Made by a program: the position numbers and the translations under genes
Shown here: positions 14,876-61,658 of the stretch, one piece after another
How positions within the stretch are numbered: the stretch's first letter is position 1
Layout: every line of letters begins with the position of its first letter
NCBI GenBank assembly: GCA_038207085.1
Contig: JBBRAE010000005.1
Location: forward strand, 91,347 to 155,346
DNA: 64,000 nt
Direction: 5' to 3'
Origin: Armatimonadota bacterium
Lineage (GTDB): Bacteria; Armatimonadota; UBA5829; DTLH01
The notes under the pieces: model-generated
Told to the model about the DNA's origin: nothing
Databases searched by the model: none
What the model saw: only the letters and a program-made list of their open reading frames with translations

Positions 14876-14902
14876 GTAGGGGCGGACCAACGTGTCCGCC
14901 CT
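14876..14902 (+). repeat. REP family B (GTAGGGGCGGACCAAYGTGTCCGCCCT)
   Basis: Near-identical at 40565, 60440, 60752 (reverse) and 60894. Confidence 0.85.
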
Positions 14903-21464: not shown

Positions 21465-21584
21465 GGCTATTACCTCCAGTAAGGTGCACAGATATTGCTC
21501 TCTCTATATTGCCCCAACGTCTGAGCGGCTAAACAATGGGAGCTTTGATACTTCGGCGCTCGGTCTGTTGAGCCGAAGCTCTAA

Positions 21585-21768
21585 GAGCGTGTCTGAGAAG
21601 TGTAGTGGCCGTCCGCCGTGACGGCCATCGGCTCCGAAGGAGCCGGAAAACGGTGGAATTTCGTGCCAATTGAGCGTTGATACGAGATTGCGCCGTAGGG
21701 CAGCGCCTACGGCGCTGATGGCCGGCACGGTGACCGGCCACTACAATTGGGATTTCTCAGACACGCTC
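21585..21768 (+). mobile_element. MITE family A, copy 1: GAGCGTGTCTGAGAA inverted repeats around a GTAG...CTAC hairpin core
   Basis: Perfect 15-bp TIRs flanked by TAA/TTA; related copies at 42389, 49450 and 52197. Confidence 0.85.
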
Positions 21769-40564: not shown

Positions 40565-40591
40565 GTAGGGGCGGACCAATGTGTCCGCCCT
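40565..40591 (+). repeat. REP family B
   Basis: GTAGGGGCGGACCAATGTGTCCGCCCT. Confidence 0.85.
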
Positions 40592-42360: not shown

Positions 42361-42388
42361 TTCCCACAATCCATCAAGTCCCCGCTTA

Positions 42389-42645
42389 GAGCGTGTCTGA
42401 GAAGTGTAGTGGCCGGTCGCTGTGCCGGCCATCAACGCCTGCGAAATCCCGATTGTAGTGGACGGTCGCCGTGCCGGCCATCAGCGCCGTAGGCGCTGCC
42501 CTACGGCGCAATCTCTTATCAATGCTCAATGGGCACGAAATTCCACCGTTTTCCGGCTCCTTCGGAGCCGATGGCCGTCACGGCGGACGGCCACTACACT
42601 TTTCAGATGGCAGTCCGCCGTGACGGCCACTACACTTCTCAGACA
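42389..42645 (-). mobile_element. MITE family A, copy 2 (both REP ends duplicated, one TIR truncated)
   Basis: Core is the reverse complement of copy 1; extra hairpin units at both ends. Confidence 0.8.
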
Positions 42646-42840: not shown

Positions 42841-43917
42841 ATGATTACACGACACATGCGTATTCTCTACGTGCTCGTGTTAGGTAGCCTGTTAGGAGCG
42901 GGTGTAGCTCCCGTGCAGGCCAAGACGAGCGTCAAACAAGAAATTGAGATAGGTCAGAAGGTTGCAAAGGATGTTGAACAAAAGTTTCCGGTTACCGATA
43001 ACAAGGAATGGCTGGCGGAGATCGATCGCCTGGGCAAGATGCTGATCGTCAACGTCAAGCGCAAGGAGCTGCCATATTCGTTCAAGATCGTCAAGGAACA
43101 GGTCGGTGGCAAGAACGAGATCGACGCCTTCTCGCTTCCGGGTGGGCCGGTATACTTTTCCGAACGAATGTGGCGGATACTCTCGCGCGATGAGCGAATC
43201 GGGGTGCTCGCCCACGAAATCGCCCACGTCGACAAGCGCCACGCGATCGACACCATGAGCGAGATGCAGAAGCGGAGTATGATCGCAACGGCGCTTTTGA
43301 TCATCACCGGCGCGGGGGGCGGCTGGTGGGACGCGGCCGACGTCGGAAACTCGCTCTATACCCTGAAATACTCCAGACAACGCGAGCGCGAAGCGGATAT
43401 GATGGGGGTCGACCTGGTCGTCGCCGCCAAGCAGAACCCAGTCGGGCTCCTGACCTCGATGAAGAAGATCCAGAGGCTGGAGCAGGAGACCGGCGGAACC
43501 CGCACCAAGATGCTCTCCACCCACCCGCCGACCAAGGAGAGGGTCAACTACCTCACCCAGCGCATGATCGAGCTTGGCGCAAAGCCCGCGGACCTTGAGC
43601 CGAAGTTCGTCGACAGCCCGGGCCGCATCGGAAGTATCGTCGAGAAGGACCCCAAGAAGAAGACCGTCGCAGTGAACACAACCACCGCGCTCTCCGACGG
43701 GCAGTTGATAGCGATCAAAAAGCCGCTCTGGGATGACAAAGTAAACGCGATGGTACCAACGGCAATCGCCAAAGGCACAGTGAAACTCGCAGGCACGCAA
43801 GGTCAGGTGTCAGTCTTGATGGAGCCCGGTTTCGAGTTTGAAGACATCGAAGCGGGGGATGCTGTCTACACGACGCCGACTCCCGCGCCTCCTGTTGGCT
43901 CAGCGGCTGGGAATTAG
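42841..43917 (+). CDS. Exported M48-family zinc metalloprotease
   Basis: Signal peptide; AFSLPGG, LAHEIAHV, YSRQREREAD, STHPPT.ER. Confidence 0.9.
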   Translation: MITRHMRILYVLVLGSLLGAGVAPVQAKTSVKQEIEIGQKVAKDVEQKFPVTDNKEWLAEIDRLGKMLIVNVKRKELPYSFKIVKEQVGGKNEIDAFSLPGGPVYFSERMWRILSRDERIGVLAHEIAHVDKRHAIDTMSEMQKRSMIATALLIITGAGGGWWDAADVGNSLYTLKYSRQREREADMMGVDLVVAAKQNPVGLLTSMKKIQRLEQETGGTRTKMLSTHPPTKERVNYLTQRMIELGAKPADLEPKFVDSPGRIGSIVEKDPKKKTVAVNTTTALSDGQLIAIKKPLWDDKVNAMVPTAIAKGTVKLAGTQGQVSVLMEPGFEFEDIEAGDAVYTTPTPAPPVGSAAGN

Positions 43918-44166
43918 CTTCGGGGGATTGGCCTGTGTCGAGCGTTTGGGTGGAGCGCACGTTTCGAGAGCCTCAACGTGATATAGTTTGGATCGATCAA
44001 ATATGAGAGATTGGTGGTCGCTCACTCTTCGTGCTTCGAGAGTCTCTGCATGACGCTTCGCTGCTCAGGGTGGCGGTTGTGCAGGCTTAGGGTAGAGGCA
44101 CGATCTCTCATATATCCACCCAAGCCAATACCCCTCACCCTGAGGCTCTCGAAGGGTGCGCTCCAC
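43914..44166. repeat. Palindromic element family D, copy 1 (includes an inverted arm)
   Basis: GGTGGAGCGCACGTTTCGAGAGCCTCAACGTGA identical at about 53707; inverted arm at 44135-44166. Confidence 0.75.
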
Positions 44167-44869: not shown

Positions 44870-44967
44870 GGGCGAGTGTTCCTTTCGGAGGACAGACACC
44901 CTGGCCTGTCCCTACAATACTGATAGACGGGTTGGCGCCCGTCTACGGGGTATTATAGCACCCCTGC

Positions 44968-48282: not shown

Positions 48283-49023
48283 TCAGTGAGAAAATCTACG
48301 TGCGCCTGCGTATTTTGAGGAGTAGTAGGAGTCGCTGAGGTTGCTTGTGATCACTCCCCGGCGGGGGTTGGCGGCGTGGATGAACCTGCCGTTGCCGATA
48401 TACATCCCCACGTGCGTGATAGGCCCGCGTGGGGTGTTGAAGAACACCAGGTCGCCGTTCGAGAGCTCATCGCGACTGACTCTCGACCCCATCCCAAACT
48501 GTATCTTGGCCGAATGGGGGAGCTTTATGCCCTTTTTGGCATACAGATACTGTGTGAATCCTGAGCAGTCGAAGACCCCTCGCCGCCCGTCGCCTCCCCA
48601 GACATAGGGAGCGCCCCTGTAGGCGAGGGCGTCCTGGGCGATGCGGACGGCGCGTCCGAGCTGGGCTGGGGTGAGAACCTTGGGTGAATCGTCTGCTGAT
48701 TTCGTGACTCTTTTAATTGCCCGTTTGGGCCTCTTGCTCATCTTGACTCCGGGGTCGCCGAGCTTGACGCTGATCTCCGGGGCGTCGTCTTTGTCGTCGG
48801 ATGTCGCCGGTGCGGCGATGGCGGGGTCGGCGGGCTGGCTTTCAGTGTCCGAGAAGAGGTCAGAGTCGGGTGAGCCGGGGTCGACCGCTTCGGGCGCGGT
48901 CATTCGGGCCTCTGTCGGCTGGTCGGCTGGTCGGTCCTTGGCATGTCGGGCTACAGCCGGAAGGGCAGCCAGGCATAGCACGATGGGCGTCACGGCGATC
49001 AGTCTATGTAACATACAATGCAT
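48283..49023 (-). CDS. Secreted NlpC/P60 (C40) cell-wall peptidase
   Basis: Signal peptide; GAPYVWGG, FDCSG, GDLVFF, HVGMYIG, FIHA. Confidence 0.93.
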   Translation of the reverse strand: MHCMLHRLIAVTPIVLCLAALPAVARHAKDRPADQPTEARMTAPEAVDPGSPDSDLFSDTESQPADPAIAAPATSDDKDDAPEISVKLGDPGVKMSKRPKRAIKRVTKSADDSPKVLTPAQLGRAVRIAQDALAYRGAPYVWGGDGRRGVFDCSGFTQYLYAKKGIKLPHSAKIQFGMGSRVSRDELSNGDLVFFNTPRGPITHVGMYIGNGRFIHAANPRRGVITSNLSDSYYSSKYAGARRFSH

Positions 49024-49117
49024 CCTTGCTTGATAATCAGTCGGGATCGCACAAGGTGGGGGAGGGCGCAGATGTGTCGAGGGGCAGACGCGTATGCGCC
49101 TGACCGTTCAGTTTCTC

Positions 49118-49252
49118 TTCACTCCGCGCCTACGGGGTTAGCTGACGGACTCGGACCGGAAGAGTGGTCCTTCCCGAATCATTCGGGATTCGCCCCAACT
49201 AACAAGCTTGGGTCCCCCGTTTGCTCCAGACGGAGCAACTCGGCGATCTGTT
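49118..49252 (-). ncRNA. c-di-AMP (ydaO/yuaA) riboswitch
   Basis: Minus strand: ATCGCCGA...GGGGGACCCA...TGGGGCGAATC...CCGAGTCCGTCAGCTAACCCCGTAGGC, directly upstream of an NlpC/P60 gene, a typical context. Confidence 0.9.
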
Positions 49253-49449
49253 ATTAAAGTATATTGCTGGGTCAATAGTAACAGGCTCGACGGGTATTGT
49301 CAAGCTGTGTTACACGTTATAGGTAGTATTCGTTCACAAAGCAAGCAGGCTGGGCATATTATGGCCGCGCCGCAGTGATTCAATTATTTTGTCGCAGATG
49401 GGCTTGCTTGTGATCCATTGTTTGGGCCTGTTTTTTGCAGATTTTCTAA

Positions 49450-49520
49450 AAGCGTGTCTGAAAAGTGTAGTGGCCGGTCGCCGTGCCGGCCACTACAATC
49501 GGGATTTCTCAGACACGCTC
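49450..49520 (+). mobile_element. MITE family A, minimal 71-bp copy with TAA target duplication
   Basis: TAA-AAGCGTGTCTGAAAA...TTCTCAGACACGCTC-TAA around one GTAG...CTAC hairpin. Confidence 0.85.
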
Positions 49521-49641
49521 TAAGAGGTAGAAGATGAGGTGCCTGTAAACAAGGTCGCCTTTGGTGTCTGCGCCATCCCACTTGCCGGGCTTGCCGCCGT
49601 CGTCCTTCGTAACGGCGATGGTTTTGCGATTGAACACGTGT

Positions 49642-52123: not shown

Positions 52124-52196
52124 CGCGAGAATTATAACATAAAAATGAGTCGTCAGTCGCCAGTTGTAGGGTTAACGCATCTTGACAGGCAACCGA

Positions 52197-52342
52197 CGTA
52201 GTGGCCGTCCCGCCGCGGCGGCCATCGGCGCGGAACGCGCCGAACAAACAATGGAATTTCGTAGAGTTGCTCATTTGGAGCGCATTACACAGTTGGCGCA
52301 GCACCTTTGGTGCTGATGGCGGGCGCAGCGACCCGCCACTAC
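52197..52342 (+). repeat. Diverged family A core without family A TIRs
   Basis: GTAGTGGCC...TGGAATTTCGT...GCCACTAC with the same hairpin order as 21602-21744. Confidence 0.75.
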
Positions 52343-52512
52343 GGGCGTTCGGTGCTGCCCGACAGCTAAGATGCGTTCGCCCTGTCGCCAGTTGATAGTA
52401 GGTGAACTGCGGGACTTTGAGGAATAAAGAAAGAGCTATTAGCAATTAGCTCTTAGCAATCGATAGCTAACGGCTAAAAGCTAATAGCTAACTGCACTCC
52501 CAGGAGGTTAGG

Positions 52513-53622: not shown

Positions 53623-53670
53623 GGGGATTGGTGTGCCCGCCCTTTTCCCGATTGCGGTGGATGCTTGGGT

Positions 53671-53800
53671 TTAGCTTCCAGGGATTGGCCCGTATTGAGG
53701 GTTTGGGTGGAGCGCACGTTTCGAGAGCCTCAACGTGATTGGCTTTAGATGGATCAAATATAGGAGATGGTGGTCGCTCACCCTACTCTCGAAGAGTGCG
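53671..53800 (+). repeat. Palindromic element family D, copy 2
   Basis: Aligns with 43914-44040. Confidence 0.75.
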
Positions 53801-60439: not shown

Positions 60440-60920
60440 GTAGGGGCAGACCAATGTGTCTGCCCTCTCCCGGCCACCGAAAATCTACGGGCAAGTGGTC
60501 AGATGCTCCGTGCAATAAGAGAGCCCGCCTTGGAACAATACAACCCAGACATTCACCACAGGCGCTCCATCCGGCTGAAGGAGTTCGATTACAGAACGAC
60601 CGGCGGATGATAACAGAGTGGTGGGATAACCTCAACATTGCTTTCACGCCTGTTGAGACCGATGAGTTTGTGGTAATGCCGAACCACATCCACGGGATCA
60701 TCTCTCTCCGGCTTGGCGTGGCTCAATCTGAAGCTGTACGTGCCCCGAAAGAGGGCGGACACATTGGTCCGCCCCTACCCAGTGTGGTCGAGATTCGACG
60801 GCAAGCTTTGGCAGCGCGACTACTATGAGCGAGTAGTTCAAGATCAGAACGAACTCGACGATATCAGGCTTGGGACAAAGATCCCGAACACCCGTAGGGG
60901 CGGACCAATGTGTCCGCCCT
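60440..60920 (+). mobile_element. Decayed REP-associated tyrosine transposase (RAYT) with three family B REPs
   Basis: Fragments in different frames: YNPDIHHRRSIRLKEFDY (from 60530), FVVMPNHIHGII, KLWQRDYYE; REPs at 60440, 60752 and 60894. Confidence 0.85.
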
Positions 60921-60923
60921 CTC

Positions 60924-61658
60924 TTACTCCGCCGCGATCACCCACTCGTCAAACGTCTCAACTACCTTCTGTCCCGGCTCAACCACGAGAAAATCCCCGC
61001 CTGTAAAGTCCGCTGCGGCGATTCGGTCGATAAGCGAGGCGTCGCCAGGCATCTCCTGATACTCCCAGCTGTGGGCCGCAGCGATTCTCTGGGTGAACTC
61101 GCGGTAGTCGTCGATACATCCGACGCCGGTATCTATCAGGCTCGCCTGGGAGTAGTGAGAGAGCCACGTCTGCTCCTGCTCTAGCAGGAACCGCGCGTTG
61201 TCCTCGCCGTACTTCTCTACGTACTCCTTGTAACGCTCCTCGGCGGCCTTCTCTTTCTGATCTGCGATGTACCCCTGCTCGATCTCCCCTTCACTTCGCT
61301 CGATCCAGCCCGCGCTATAGTAGTAGGTGCCGGGGTTATCGATAAACTCCCGGTTATACCGCTCGCGGGAGCCCAAAAAGAGCGTGATGCAGTCGTGGGC
61401 TCTGGGGATCACTACGGGCACGTTTTGGGCGACAAGCTCCGCCGTTCCCCTGCTGCACAGGCCGTACCCAAGGACGATTGTGTCAAACCCTTCGGCGCTC
61501 GCCGAGTCGATCTCAGCCTGGAGCCTTTCCCGAAGCTTGTCGGGGGTGCCGTGGAGCCCAAAGGGCATAAACGCAAGAGAAAACACGTGCCTGCTCCCGG
61601 ATGCAGCCAGGCAGATCTCGCGGGTAAGAACTTCGCATGCAATAATCTTGATCTTCAT
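60924..61658 (-). CDS. DUF1638-like protein
   Basis: IACEVL.RE, GLH..PDKLR..LQ, LGYGLC..G, PRAHDCITLFLGS. Confidence 0.82.
   Translation of the reverse strand: MKIKIIACEVLTREICLAASGSRHVFSLAFMPFGLHGTPDKLRERLQAEIDSASAEGFDTIVLGYGLCSRGTAELVAQNVPVVIPRAHDCITLFLGSRERYNREFIDNPGTYYYSAGWIERSEGEIEQGYIADQKEKAAEERYKEYVEKYGEDNARFLLEQEQTWLSHYSQASLIDTGVGCIDDYREFTQRIAAAHSWEYQEMPGDASLIDRIAAADFTGGDFLVVEPGQKVVETFDEWVIAAE

Follow-up and report, generated by a model that had tools for sequence, protein, structure and literature searches.

A REPIN within IS5-family terminal repeats: a probable nested non-autonomous element in an Armatimonadota genome

Introduction

What kind of mobile element has the ends of one transposon type on its outside and the ends of another on its inside? 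The question is raised by a 184-bp element at positions 21585-21768 (copy A) of a 64,000-nucleotide stretch of DNA from an Armatimonadota bacterium (contig JBBRAE010000005.1, positions 91,347 to 155,346 of the forward strand), which was analysed as a whole and is referred to below as the window. The outer part of the element, here called the shell, is a pair of 15-bp terminal inverted repeats of the kind that bounds miniature inverted-repeat transposable elements (MITEs); the inner part, the core, begins with GTAG, ends with CTAC and resembles a doublet of repetitive extragenic palindromes (REPs). The initial annotation of this locus, made from the sequence alone, offered two explanations, namely a structured module mobilised by two transposition chemistries or an unnamed structured RNA carried by a MITE.

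REPINs (REP doublets forming hairpins) are regarded as dependent on a single, vertically inherited REP-associated tyrosine transposase (RAYT), and MITEs as dependent on a DDE transposase. The ties of REPINs and REPtrons to RAYT genes, also called TnpAREP, have been described in detail (PMC3116915, PMC3333891, PMC8266576), and in the RAYT systems that have been studied the GTAG tetranucleotide and the adjoining stem are the recognition determinants, with cleavage at a nearby CT (PMC8266576). We argue here that copy A is probably a nested non-autonomous element, in which a REPIN is housed between IS5-family terminal repeats so that the whole constitutes a MITE; we put the probability of this reading at about 0.62. 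Both layers are bacterial repeats of ordinary kinds; what is uncommon is that one is nested in the other, and the element is not a new RNA.

Results

Copy A is a palindromic shell around a four-hairpin core

Copy A and its flanks are built as follows, from left to right and in window coordinates.

21582-21584, no strand: left flank TAA, complementary to the right-flank TTA and hence no direct repeat
21585-21599, plus strand: left terminal inverted repeat of the IS5-type shell, GAGCGTGTCTGAGAA, identical to both ends of the IS5-family insertion sequence at locus L325
21602-21627, plus strand: REP h1, GTAG followed by TGGCCGTC/GACGGCCA with an 8-bp stem (hairpin 21606-21627); the same module lies to the left of the RAYT genes at loci L217 and L247
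21629-21645, plus strand: hairpin h2, CGGCTCC GAA GGAGCCG, with a stem that covaries across RAYT flanks and window cores
21646-21700, plus strand: central spacer including the motif TGGAATTTCGT (21654-21664), which is invariant in three core copies; the origin of the spacer is uncertain
21701-21717, plus strand: hairpin h3, CAGCGCC TAC GGCGCTG; its homologue is found after the stop codon of the RAYT gene in L217, L247, L315 and L317
21719-21744, minus strand: REP h4, an inverted REP copy (hairpin 21719-21740); the same module lies to the right of the RAYT genes
21745-21753, plus strand: subterminal shell segment AATTGGGAT, at the right end only (family D18); also present in C and in B's inner copy
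21754-21768, minus strand: right terminal inverted repeat of the shell, the exact reverse complement of GAGCGTGTCTGAGAA
21769-21771, no strand: right flank TTA, the reverse complement of the left TAA

The terminal repeats and the hairpin core were thus as originally described, the core (21602-21744) measuring 143 bp and ending in CTAC on the plus strand because h4 is a REP in inverted orientation. The 15-mer GAGCGTGTCTGAGAA occurs exactly five times in the window, where no exact match is expected by chance. Since the flanking TAA and TTA are reverse complements of one another, they extend the inverted repeat to 19 bp and do not represent a direct duplication. The core folds far better than shuffled sequences as RNA (z = -10.5), and so does the whole of copy A as single-stranded DNA (z = -13.4). 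The first and last 26 nt of the core form an inverted repeat, and the minimum-energy fold is accordingly closed by one long h1/h4 stem. The central motif TGGAATTTCGT, which had been described as invariant and unpaired, is indeed invariant in three cores, but it is predicted to pair with ACGAGATT (21682-21689) in copies A and B and is unpaired only in copy D. Comparison of a six-frame pseudo-protein of copy A with a set of 5.8 billion proteins returned no relatives, and the elements of this group are small and non-coding (71-184 bp between repeat ends), as is usual for MITEs.

The shell and core recur together at three window loci

In addition to the diverged core noted initially (copy D), the window contains two copies that had been overlooked, at 42385-42645 (copy B) and 49447-49523 (copy C).

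42385-42645, no strand: copy B, a rearranged composite with a full left repeat (42389-42403) followed by a REP (42406-42431)
42455-42597: inner core of copy B in reverse orientation, complete and 96.5% identical to that of A, with shell ends cut to about 8 nt
42608-42633 and 42636-42645: right part of copy B, an extra REP followed by a shortened repeat, TTCTCAGACA
49447-49523, no strand: copy C, a minimal element made up of TAA, left repeat (49450-49464, 2 mismatches), REP (49467-49496), right repeat (49506-49520) and TAA
52198-52342, plus strand: copy D, a diverged REPIN core, 74% identical to A, with similarity ending exactly at GTAG and CTAC
52156-52394, no strand: shell around copy D, with 16-nt inverted repeats (52168-52183 and 52368-52383) that are 88% complementary

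Copies A, B and C are the three loci in the window at which shell and REP stand together, and their shell/REP junctions are identical: the left junction, TGTCTGARAAGT followed by GTAGTGGCCG, is found five times in the window and the right junction, CCACTAC followed by AATYGGGATTTC, three times. Between A and the inner part of B the similarity continues from the core into the shell ends (95.8% over 165 nt). Given these identical junctions at three loci, the composite appears most likely to have spread as one unit. Copy C contains a single GTAG...CTAC hairpin as its REP, and its TAA/TAA flanks form a direct 3-bp duplication; it could be the product of a deletion between the REP arms of an A-type element. 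Copy B could be the outcome of a nested insertion or of a hairpin-driven rearrangement.

Copy D carries none of the GAGCGTGTCTGAGAA terminal repeats and is surrounded by a shell different from that of A, which is directly bordered by a perfect 11-nt direct repeat, GTCGCCAGTTG (52156-52166 and 52384-52394). The terminal repeat of this shell had no other copy in the window or among fetched loci totalling 1.2 Mb. Altogether, ten REP units of the h1/h4 type, including two with one stem mismatch, are present at four window loci, and every REP of this family in the window sits within a larger inverted-repeat shell. All four loci are intergenic, and the core is found in both orientations relative to the neighbouring genes. 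In an assembly made independently from short reads, apparently of the same organism (Logan SRR19962012), a 2.7-kb contig ends at or inside the REPs of copies C and D, which is the behaviour expected of multi-copy repeats.

One further detail of copy B concerns 42570-42641, where the main difference between two 36-nt units in tandem (REP-CTAC-AC-TTYTCAGA) is that the hairpin loop is inverted (ACGGCG in one, CGCCGT in the other). A loop that flips in this way suggests hairpin-templated copying.

The core resembles the two ends of a RAYT gene unit

The G+C content of the window is approximately 58%, and its proteins are nearest to those of Armatimonadota metagenome-assembled genomes (MAGs), a GH38-like protein being 57% identical and KdsD 72-78%. 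The species-representative and metagenome collections that were searched do not include the window itself. A scan with the REP pattern gave matches in many environmental genomes, several Armatimonadota MAGs being prominent. Two of these (L217 and L247) contain an intact RAYT gene of approximately 160 codons between two hairpin modules, with a GTAG-REP followed by TCGG(C/T)TCCGCAGGAGCCG on the left and CCAGCACCTTCGGTGCTGA followed by TGGCCGGCACGGAGACCGGCCACTAC on the right; the MAG of L217 also encodes a KdsD that is 74% identical to that of the window. The same layout of RAYT flanks is seen at L315, L317 and L153, while at L316 both REPs are present and no h3 hairpin was seen. The RAYTs of these relatives score above the Pfam Y1_Tnp cut-off.

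These RAYT flanks can be aligned with the left 48 nt and the right 47 nt of the window cores, and the left arm, when reverse-complemented, is built like the right one. Because the arms match the RAYT flanks and share one architecture, the 143-bp core can be read as a REPIN, a double-hairpin unit in which a spacer of about 55 nt replaces the gene. To judge by its sequence, it consists of both ends of such a unit, from which the RAYT gene is missing. The initial assignment of the GTAG-headed hairpins to RAYT-type REPs is borne out by the occurrence of the same modules on either side of intact RAYT genes in relatives. GTAG stands directly 5' of a GC-rich palindrome, and cores A, B and D all have the layout of a REPIN, the minimum-energy fold pairing both ends.

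A RAYT of the host itself is apparently represented by protein P0129, which matches the NCBIfam model REP_Tyr_transpos (NF047646) with 102.6 bits (cut-off 80) and would be encoded on the source contig, outside the window and beside this REP. The annotated N-terminus of P0129, MAGTATGHY, is a translation of ATGGCCGGCACGGCGACCGGCCACTAC, a REP of the h4 type. The deposited gene call begins inside the upstream REP, giving a spurious 22-residue extension (MAGTATGHYVSLWRYGVCWGLC), and the likely true start is MSETRERCYL. Elsewhere, in the Armatimonadetes MAG OY970325.1 (L219, 7599-7777), five tandem REPs with a spacing of 38 nt lie directly upstream of a RAYT gene, P0127.

The central spacer gave less to work with. 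A homology between TGGAATTTCGT and the RAYT leader GCAATTTTCGAC was considered; it is suggestive by eye, but the similarity is weak and lacks alignment support. A pattern consisting of GGCCATCGGC, 17-27 unspecified nucleotides and TGGAATTTCGT gave 17 scattered single matches in species-representative genomes, none with further similarity, and we regard these as chance.

The second hairpin of each arm is conserved in structure

The four compensatory changes between cores A and D that had been reported initially were all confirmed, h2 having two of them and h3 and h4 one each, and the covariation holds in a larger alignment. This alignment (A3) comprises eight rows that were not picked for having hairpins, namely the right arms of A, B and D, the right flanks of the RAYT genes at L217, L317 and L315, and the reversed left arms of A and D. 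In A3, 99% of cells are paired, seven pairs are changed on both sides and none of 500 shuffles scored as high; the signal was lost when the partners were shifted by 1-3 columns. The left arms, aligned in 12 rows (A2), gave the same picture, but we rely on A3 because half of the A2 rows (L133, L166, L169, L234, L240 and L300) had been picked for having the hairpin.

Across 12 sequences, GTAG and six of the seven REP stem pairs are invariant. In the 7-bp hairpin next to the REP the structure is kept and the sequence is free to vary. This pattern agrees with a model in which the RAYT would read the first hairpin by its sequence and the second would matter for its structure alone. Among 191 unique REP contexts, 13 had such a second hairpin, compared with 2 and 6 in two controls, which rules it out as a general feature of the REP class; its rarity there marks it as specific to the RAYT unit of this clade.

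The shell has the ends of an IS5-family insertion sequence

The 19-mer CTAAGAGCGTGTCTGAGAA was found at 16 loci in at least eight phyla (L318-L333: Chloroflexota, Acidobacteriota, Gammaproteobacteria, Planctomycetota, Zixiibacteriota, Actinomycetota and others). A full-length insertion sequence with these terminal repeats, of the kind that the initial annotation had proposed to look for, is present in a Chloroflexia genome (L325, 5954-6912): it is 959 bp long, carries the exact 15-mer at both ends and contains two overlapping reading frames that match DUF4096 and DDE_Tnp_1. Jointly the frames cover positions 1-115 and 112-258 of the NCBIfam model NF033580 (IS5 family transposase), across a frameshift. 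The other paired matches to CTAAGAGCGTGTCTGAGAA are MITEs of 107-263 bp with unrelated interiors, and six of eight independent insertions of such MITEs in other phyla are flanked by TAA/TAA or TTA/TTA. The window copies have TAA/TAA (C) or TAA/TTA (A) flanks, or are cut at the right end (B).

By the identity of its ends, then, the shell is an IS5-family MITE. We take it to resemble the IS427/IS1031 group of the ISfinder classification; insertion sequences of this type are about 0.85-1 kb long, have ends starting with GAG and make a 3-bp target duplication. The 3-nt target and the frameshift have support in the literature (PMC2516522). The initial proposal of an IS5-like DDE transposase with a TNA-type duplication is thus upheld as to the family, by L325 and the MITEs of other phyla, but not as to copy A, in which TAA/TTA is no duplication. 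The distribution of CTAAGAGCGTGTCTGAGAA suggests one very widely travelled IS5-family element.

Other observations bear on these shells in general. The interiors of the MITEs carrying CTAAGAGCGTGTCTGAGAA are often rich in hairpins, and that at L319 has GTAG/CTAC-type palindromes like those of a second REP family in the window (described below). Assignment of the shell to the IS630 or Tc1-mariner type, with a TA duplication in CTAG, was also considered, and copy A fits it (C-TA...TA-G) but B and C do not; this reading was dropped, as MITEs with the same repeat show TNA duplications and the full element is of the IS5 family. An IS630-like pattern does fit a different MITE family of Armatimonadota MAGs, in which left flanks are CTAAG in 8 of 9 cases and right flanks CTTAG in all 6. 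Members of this family (L248, 4808-4958, and L262, 4607-4728, both in 6_bin.213; L300, 2533-2655) are 122-151 bp long, have imperfect inverted repeats (CTAAGTAACATCCTGTCTTAATAG and CTAAGTAGTCTCCGTTTCTAGTAG) with constant C-TA...TA-G flanks and contain one GTAG REP plus second hairpin; many copies lie at contig ends.

One composite or separate travellers

If copy A is a REPIN nested in a MITE, an IS5-type DDE transposase acting in trans would cut and paste the 184-bp unit into TNA sites by way of the outer repeats, and the inner hairpins would remain single-stranded DNA substrates to be bound and cut by the RAYT (HUH/Y1) of the genome. This mobilisation by two chemistries, which the initial annotation had put forward, is something that we too infer.

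Several points weigh against this account. A clean TNA duplication is seen in this genome only at copy C, since A's flanks show none and B's right end is truncated. No transposase was found among the open reading frames near the four copies that were scanned against Pfam and NCBIfam, most open reading frames of the window having been left unscanned, and neither a transposition event nor an IS5 transposase of this genome was seen in the 64 kb read. The same 64 kb contain no empty shell and no empty site. The identical junctions at A, B and C would also be expected if a RAYT had inserted REPs site-specifically into each copy of the shell, and the model does not account for core D, which occupies an unrelated shell with its 11-nt direct repeat. 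Nor does it explain the middle 55 nt of the core, in which the invariant TGGAATTTCGT lies, and the tie of P0129 to the contig of the window is indirect, running in part through the REP-encoded N-terminus. The exact 26-mer spanning the shell/REP junction, GAGCGTGTCTGAGAAGTGTAGTGGCC, had no match in species-representative genomes, and the 14-21-kb loci of the nearest relatives (KdsD 74-78%) contain neither the element nor any alignable intergenic DNA.

The strongest alternative is that shell and REPs travelled separately. Pre-existing IS5-type MITEs, with a short centre between two terminal repeats, would be a preferred target, and in independent events a RAYT would have placed a REP into the centre of copy C and a REPIN into that of copy A. 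In single-stranded DNA the palindrome formed by the outer repeats would be extruded as a hairpin, with its tip as the insertion site. Such a history is consistent with the varying REP content of otherwise alike shells (a single REP in C, the full core in A, a reversed core in B), with the central position of core D in a second, unrelated palindromic shell, and with the presence of a REP module inside yet another inverted-repeat shell in related Armatimonadota MAGs. REP dimers within long palindromes are also known from Anabaena variabilis (GTAG-15), Halothiobacillus neapolitanus (CGTC-1) and Thermomicrobium roseum (GTAG-23), and those of A. variabilis and H. neapolitanus, formed by GTAG or CGTC REPs, were called targets (PMC3733652). 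Against it stand the lack of any repeat pair without a REP in the window and the 96.5% identity between A's core and the one inside B, which runs on into the shell ends and fits copying of the composite. Moreover, where this repeat bounds MITEs of other phyla their interiors are arbitrary, so that the shell seems to carry cargo in general and not to be specifically a REP target. Finally, the literature consulted shows cleavage and strand transfer by RAYTs (PMC8266576), and insertion activity is not known for any of them. On balance we consider separate travel unlikely, while noting that spread of a composite and RAYT-targeted insertion are not mutually exclusive and that 64 kb cannot separate them.

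A broader proposition can be attached to either history, namely that the REPs and REPINs of a vertically inherited RAYT are systematically housed in DDE-type MITE shells in this lineage, perhaps more widely. We regard it as speculative. The housing could arise in two ways: the RAYT might insert into the tip of an extruded MITE hairpin, a target rule undescribed for REPINs, or the ride in a MITE might let REPINs spread without a RAYT of their own, possibly between genomes by way of an IS5-family element.

The strong covariation and very stable fold are also properties that a structured non-coding RNA carried by a MITE would have, its stems being functional RNA helices. Several stems contain T-G pairs on the GTAG strand that become A-C mismatches on the other strand, and roles of REPs in mRNA stability and in termination are known (summarised in PMC3733652). 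The stems are, however, those of transposase gene flanks, in inverted orientation on the two sides; the first is invariant in sequence, as would be expected of a protein recognition site, and bears the GTAG tag; the core lies on both strands relative to neighbouring genes; and the structure of its central region is not conserved between A and D. Nor does any bacterial Rfam family match it. At gathering thresholds, the only Rfam match in the window is a c-di-AMP riboswitch (49113-49255), with no match to the element, and at an E-value threshold copy A matches only MIR8622 (65.6 bits versus 197) and copy D nothing meaningful. MIR8622 is a plant microRNA precursor family, and its match is an artefact of the long hairpin. 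Because the stems flank a transposase gene, occur in both orientations and find no bacterial Rfam match, a free-standing RNA is very improbable, and the unnamed structured RNA of the initial annotation is not needed to explain hairpins that are arms of a RAYT unit, inverted copies of one architecture.

Equally hard to sustain is a single chemistry, in which the outer repeats would be part of an extended hairpin recognised by a tyrosine (HUH) transposase with no DDE enzyme involved: the whole element does fold as one long hairpin, the TAA/TTA of copy A extends the palindrome instead of duplicating the target, the MITE family of related MAGs has constant CTAAG...CTTAG ends and tyrosine transposases associated with terminal inverted repeats have been described (Di Nocera et al., PMC3733652), but the identical 15-mer terminates a DDE-encoding IS5-family element, the MITEs that share this repeat have direct TNA duplications of 3 bp, of a kind not made by HUH single-strand transposition, and the RAYT units of relatives are not bordered by this repeat.

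Other repeats and neighbouring features

A degraded RAYT pseudogene occupies approximately 60503-60885 (plus strand) within the interval 60440-60930, where the pieces HHRRSIRLKEFDY, FVVMPNHIHGII, KLWQRDYYERVV and WDKDPEHP can be recognised; a conceptual join scores 20.2 bits on Pfam Y1_Tnp, just below the cut-off of 23. REPs of a second family, GTAGGGGCGGACCAATGTGTCCGCCC, flank and interrupt the pseudogene.

60440-60465, plus strand: second-family REP
60753-60778, minus strand: second-family REP
60894-60919, plus strand: second-family REP

Further GTAG REPs of the second family (GTAGGGGCGGACC...GTCCGCCC) are found at 14876-14901, 40565-40590 and 44890-44915 (minus strand). None of these three lies within GAGCGTGTCTGAGAA repeats, which in the window are confined to elements A, B and C.

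A pair of non-coding segments of approximately 110 nt, at 43906-44011 and 53663-53768, is 84-86% identical. Each member lies just downstream of a plus-strand gene, encoding an M48 protease and a Gfo/Idh-type oxidoreductase, respectively, and the pair is a candidate for a third repeat family or a small RNA. The c-di-AMP riboswitch mentioned above is of the ydaO type (49113-49255, minus strand, 94.9 bits) and lies upstream of a gene for an NlpC/P60 cell-wall hydrolase (48283-49023, minus strand). As copy C is located approximately 190 nt further upstream of the riboswitch, it could affect the promoter region of the hydrolase gene.

Discussion

The two layers of the element can each be placed among known systems, and each departs from its class. 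With REPINs, the core shares a GTAG directly before a perfect GC-rich palindrome, two inverted REPs with a spacer, an apparently intergenic and multi-copy distribution, and a REP that also flanks a Y1/HUH RAYT in relatives and apparently in this genome. Unlike known REPINs, each arm here is a double hairpin, made of an invariant REP and a sequence-variable 7-bp hairpin, and all REPs of this family in the window are inside a larger inverted-repeat shell. With IS5 MITEs, the shell shares 15-bp terminal repeats starting with GAG, a non-coding interior, a length of 80-260 bp and a full-length relative of 959 bp whose transposase is split by a frameshift; a TNA duplication is seen in one window copy (C) and in MITEs of other phyla. 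Unlike the usual IS5 MITE, its interior is a REPIN of the host lineage and not a remnant of the insertion sequence, and the parent insertion sequence was found only in another phylum and not in this genome.

Two precedents for the combination deserve mention. As in the dimers reported by Di Nocera and colleagues in 2013, REP dimers are centred here in a longer conserved inverted repeat; the outer palindromes of that study were neither investigated nor tied to a transposase (PMC3733652), whereas the outer repeat described here is identical to an IS5-family end, with TNA duplications at copy C and in other phyla. REPs have also been presented as targets of insertion sequences (Tobes & Pareja 2006, as cited in PMC3733652). 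The likeness lies in the physical association of REPs with DDE insertion sequences, but on that cited account the topology is reversed, with an insertion sequence inside a REP cluster there and REPs inside the terminal repeats of an insertion sequence here.

Both parts of the element are of known kinds, and REP dimers in longer palindromes were noted in 2013 without follow-up. What is new is the identification of the outer palindrome as the end of a cross-phylum IS5-family insertion sequence, the correspondence of the inner REPIN to the two ends of the RAYT unit found in this lineage, both of which carry a second, covarying hairpin, and the recurrence in the clade of REP-in-shell elements with three different shells. 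We consider the significance moderate, the parts being of known kinds and mobilisation by either enzyme being something that we infer.

A composite with substrates for both enzymes would have two independent amplification routes, and it could explain the REP dimers inside longer palindromes that were left open in 2013. The core also offers a concrete origin for a REPIN, as the ends of a RAYT unit minus its gene, in parallel with the derivation of MITEs from insertion sequences. In practical terms, repeats of this kind break the assemblies of a poorly sampled phylum, and gene callers may translate them as the N-termini of proteins, as in P0129.

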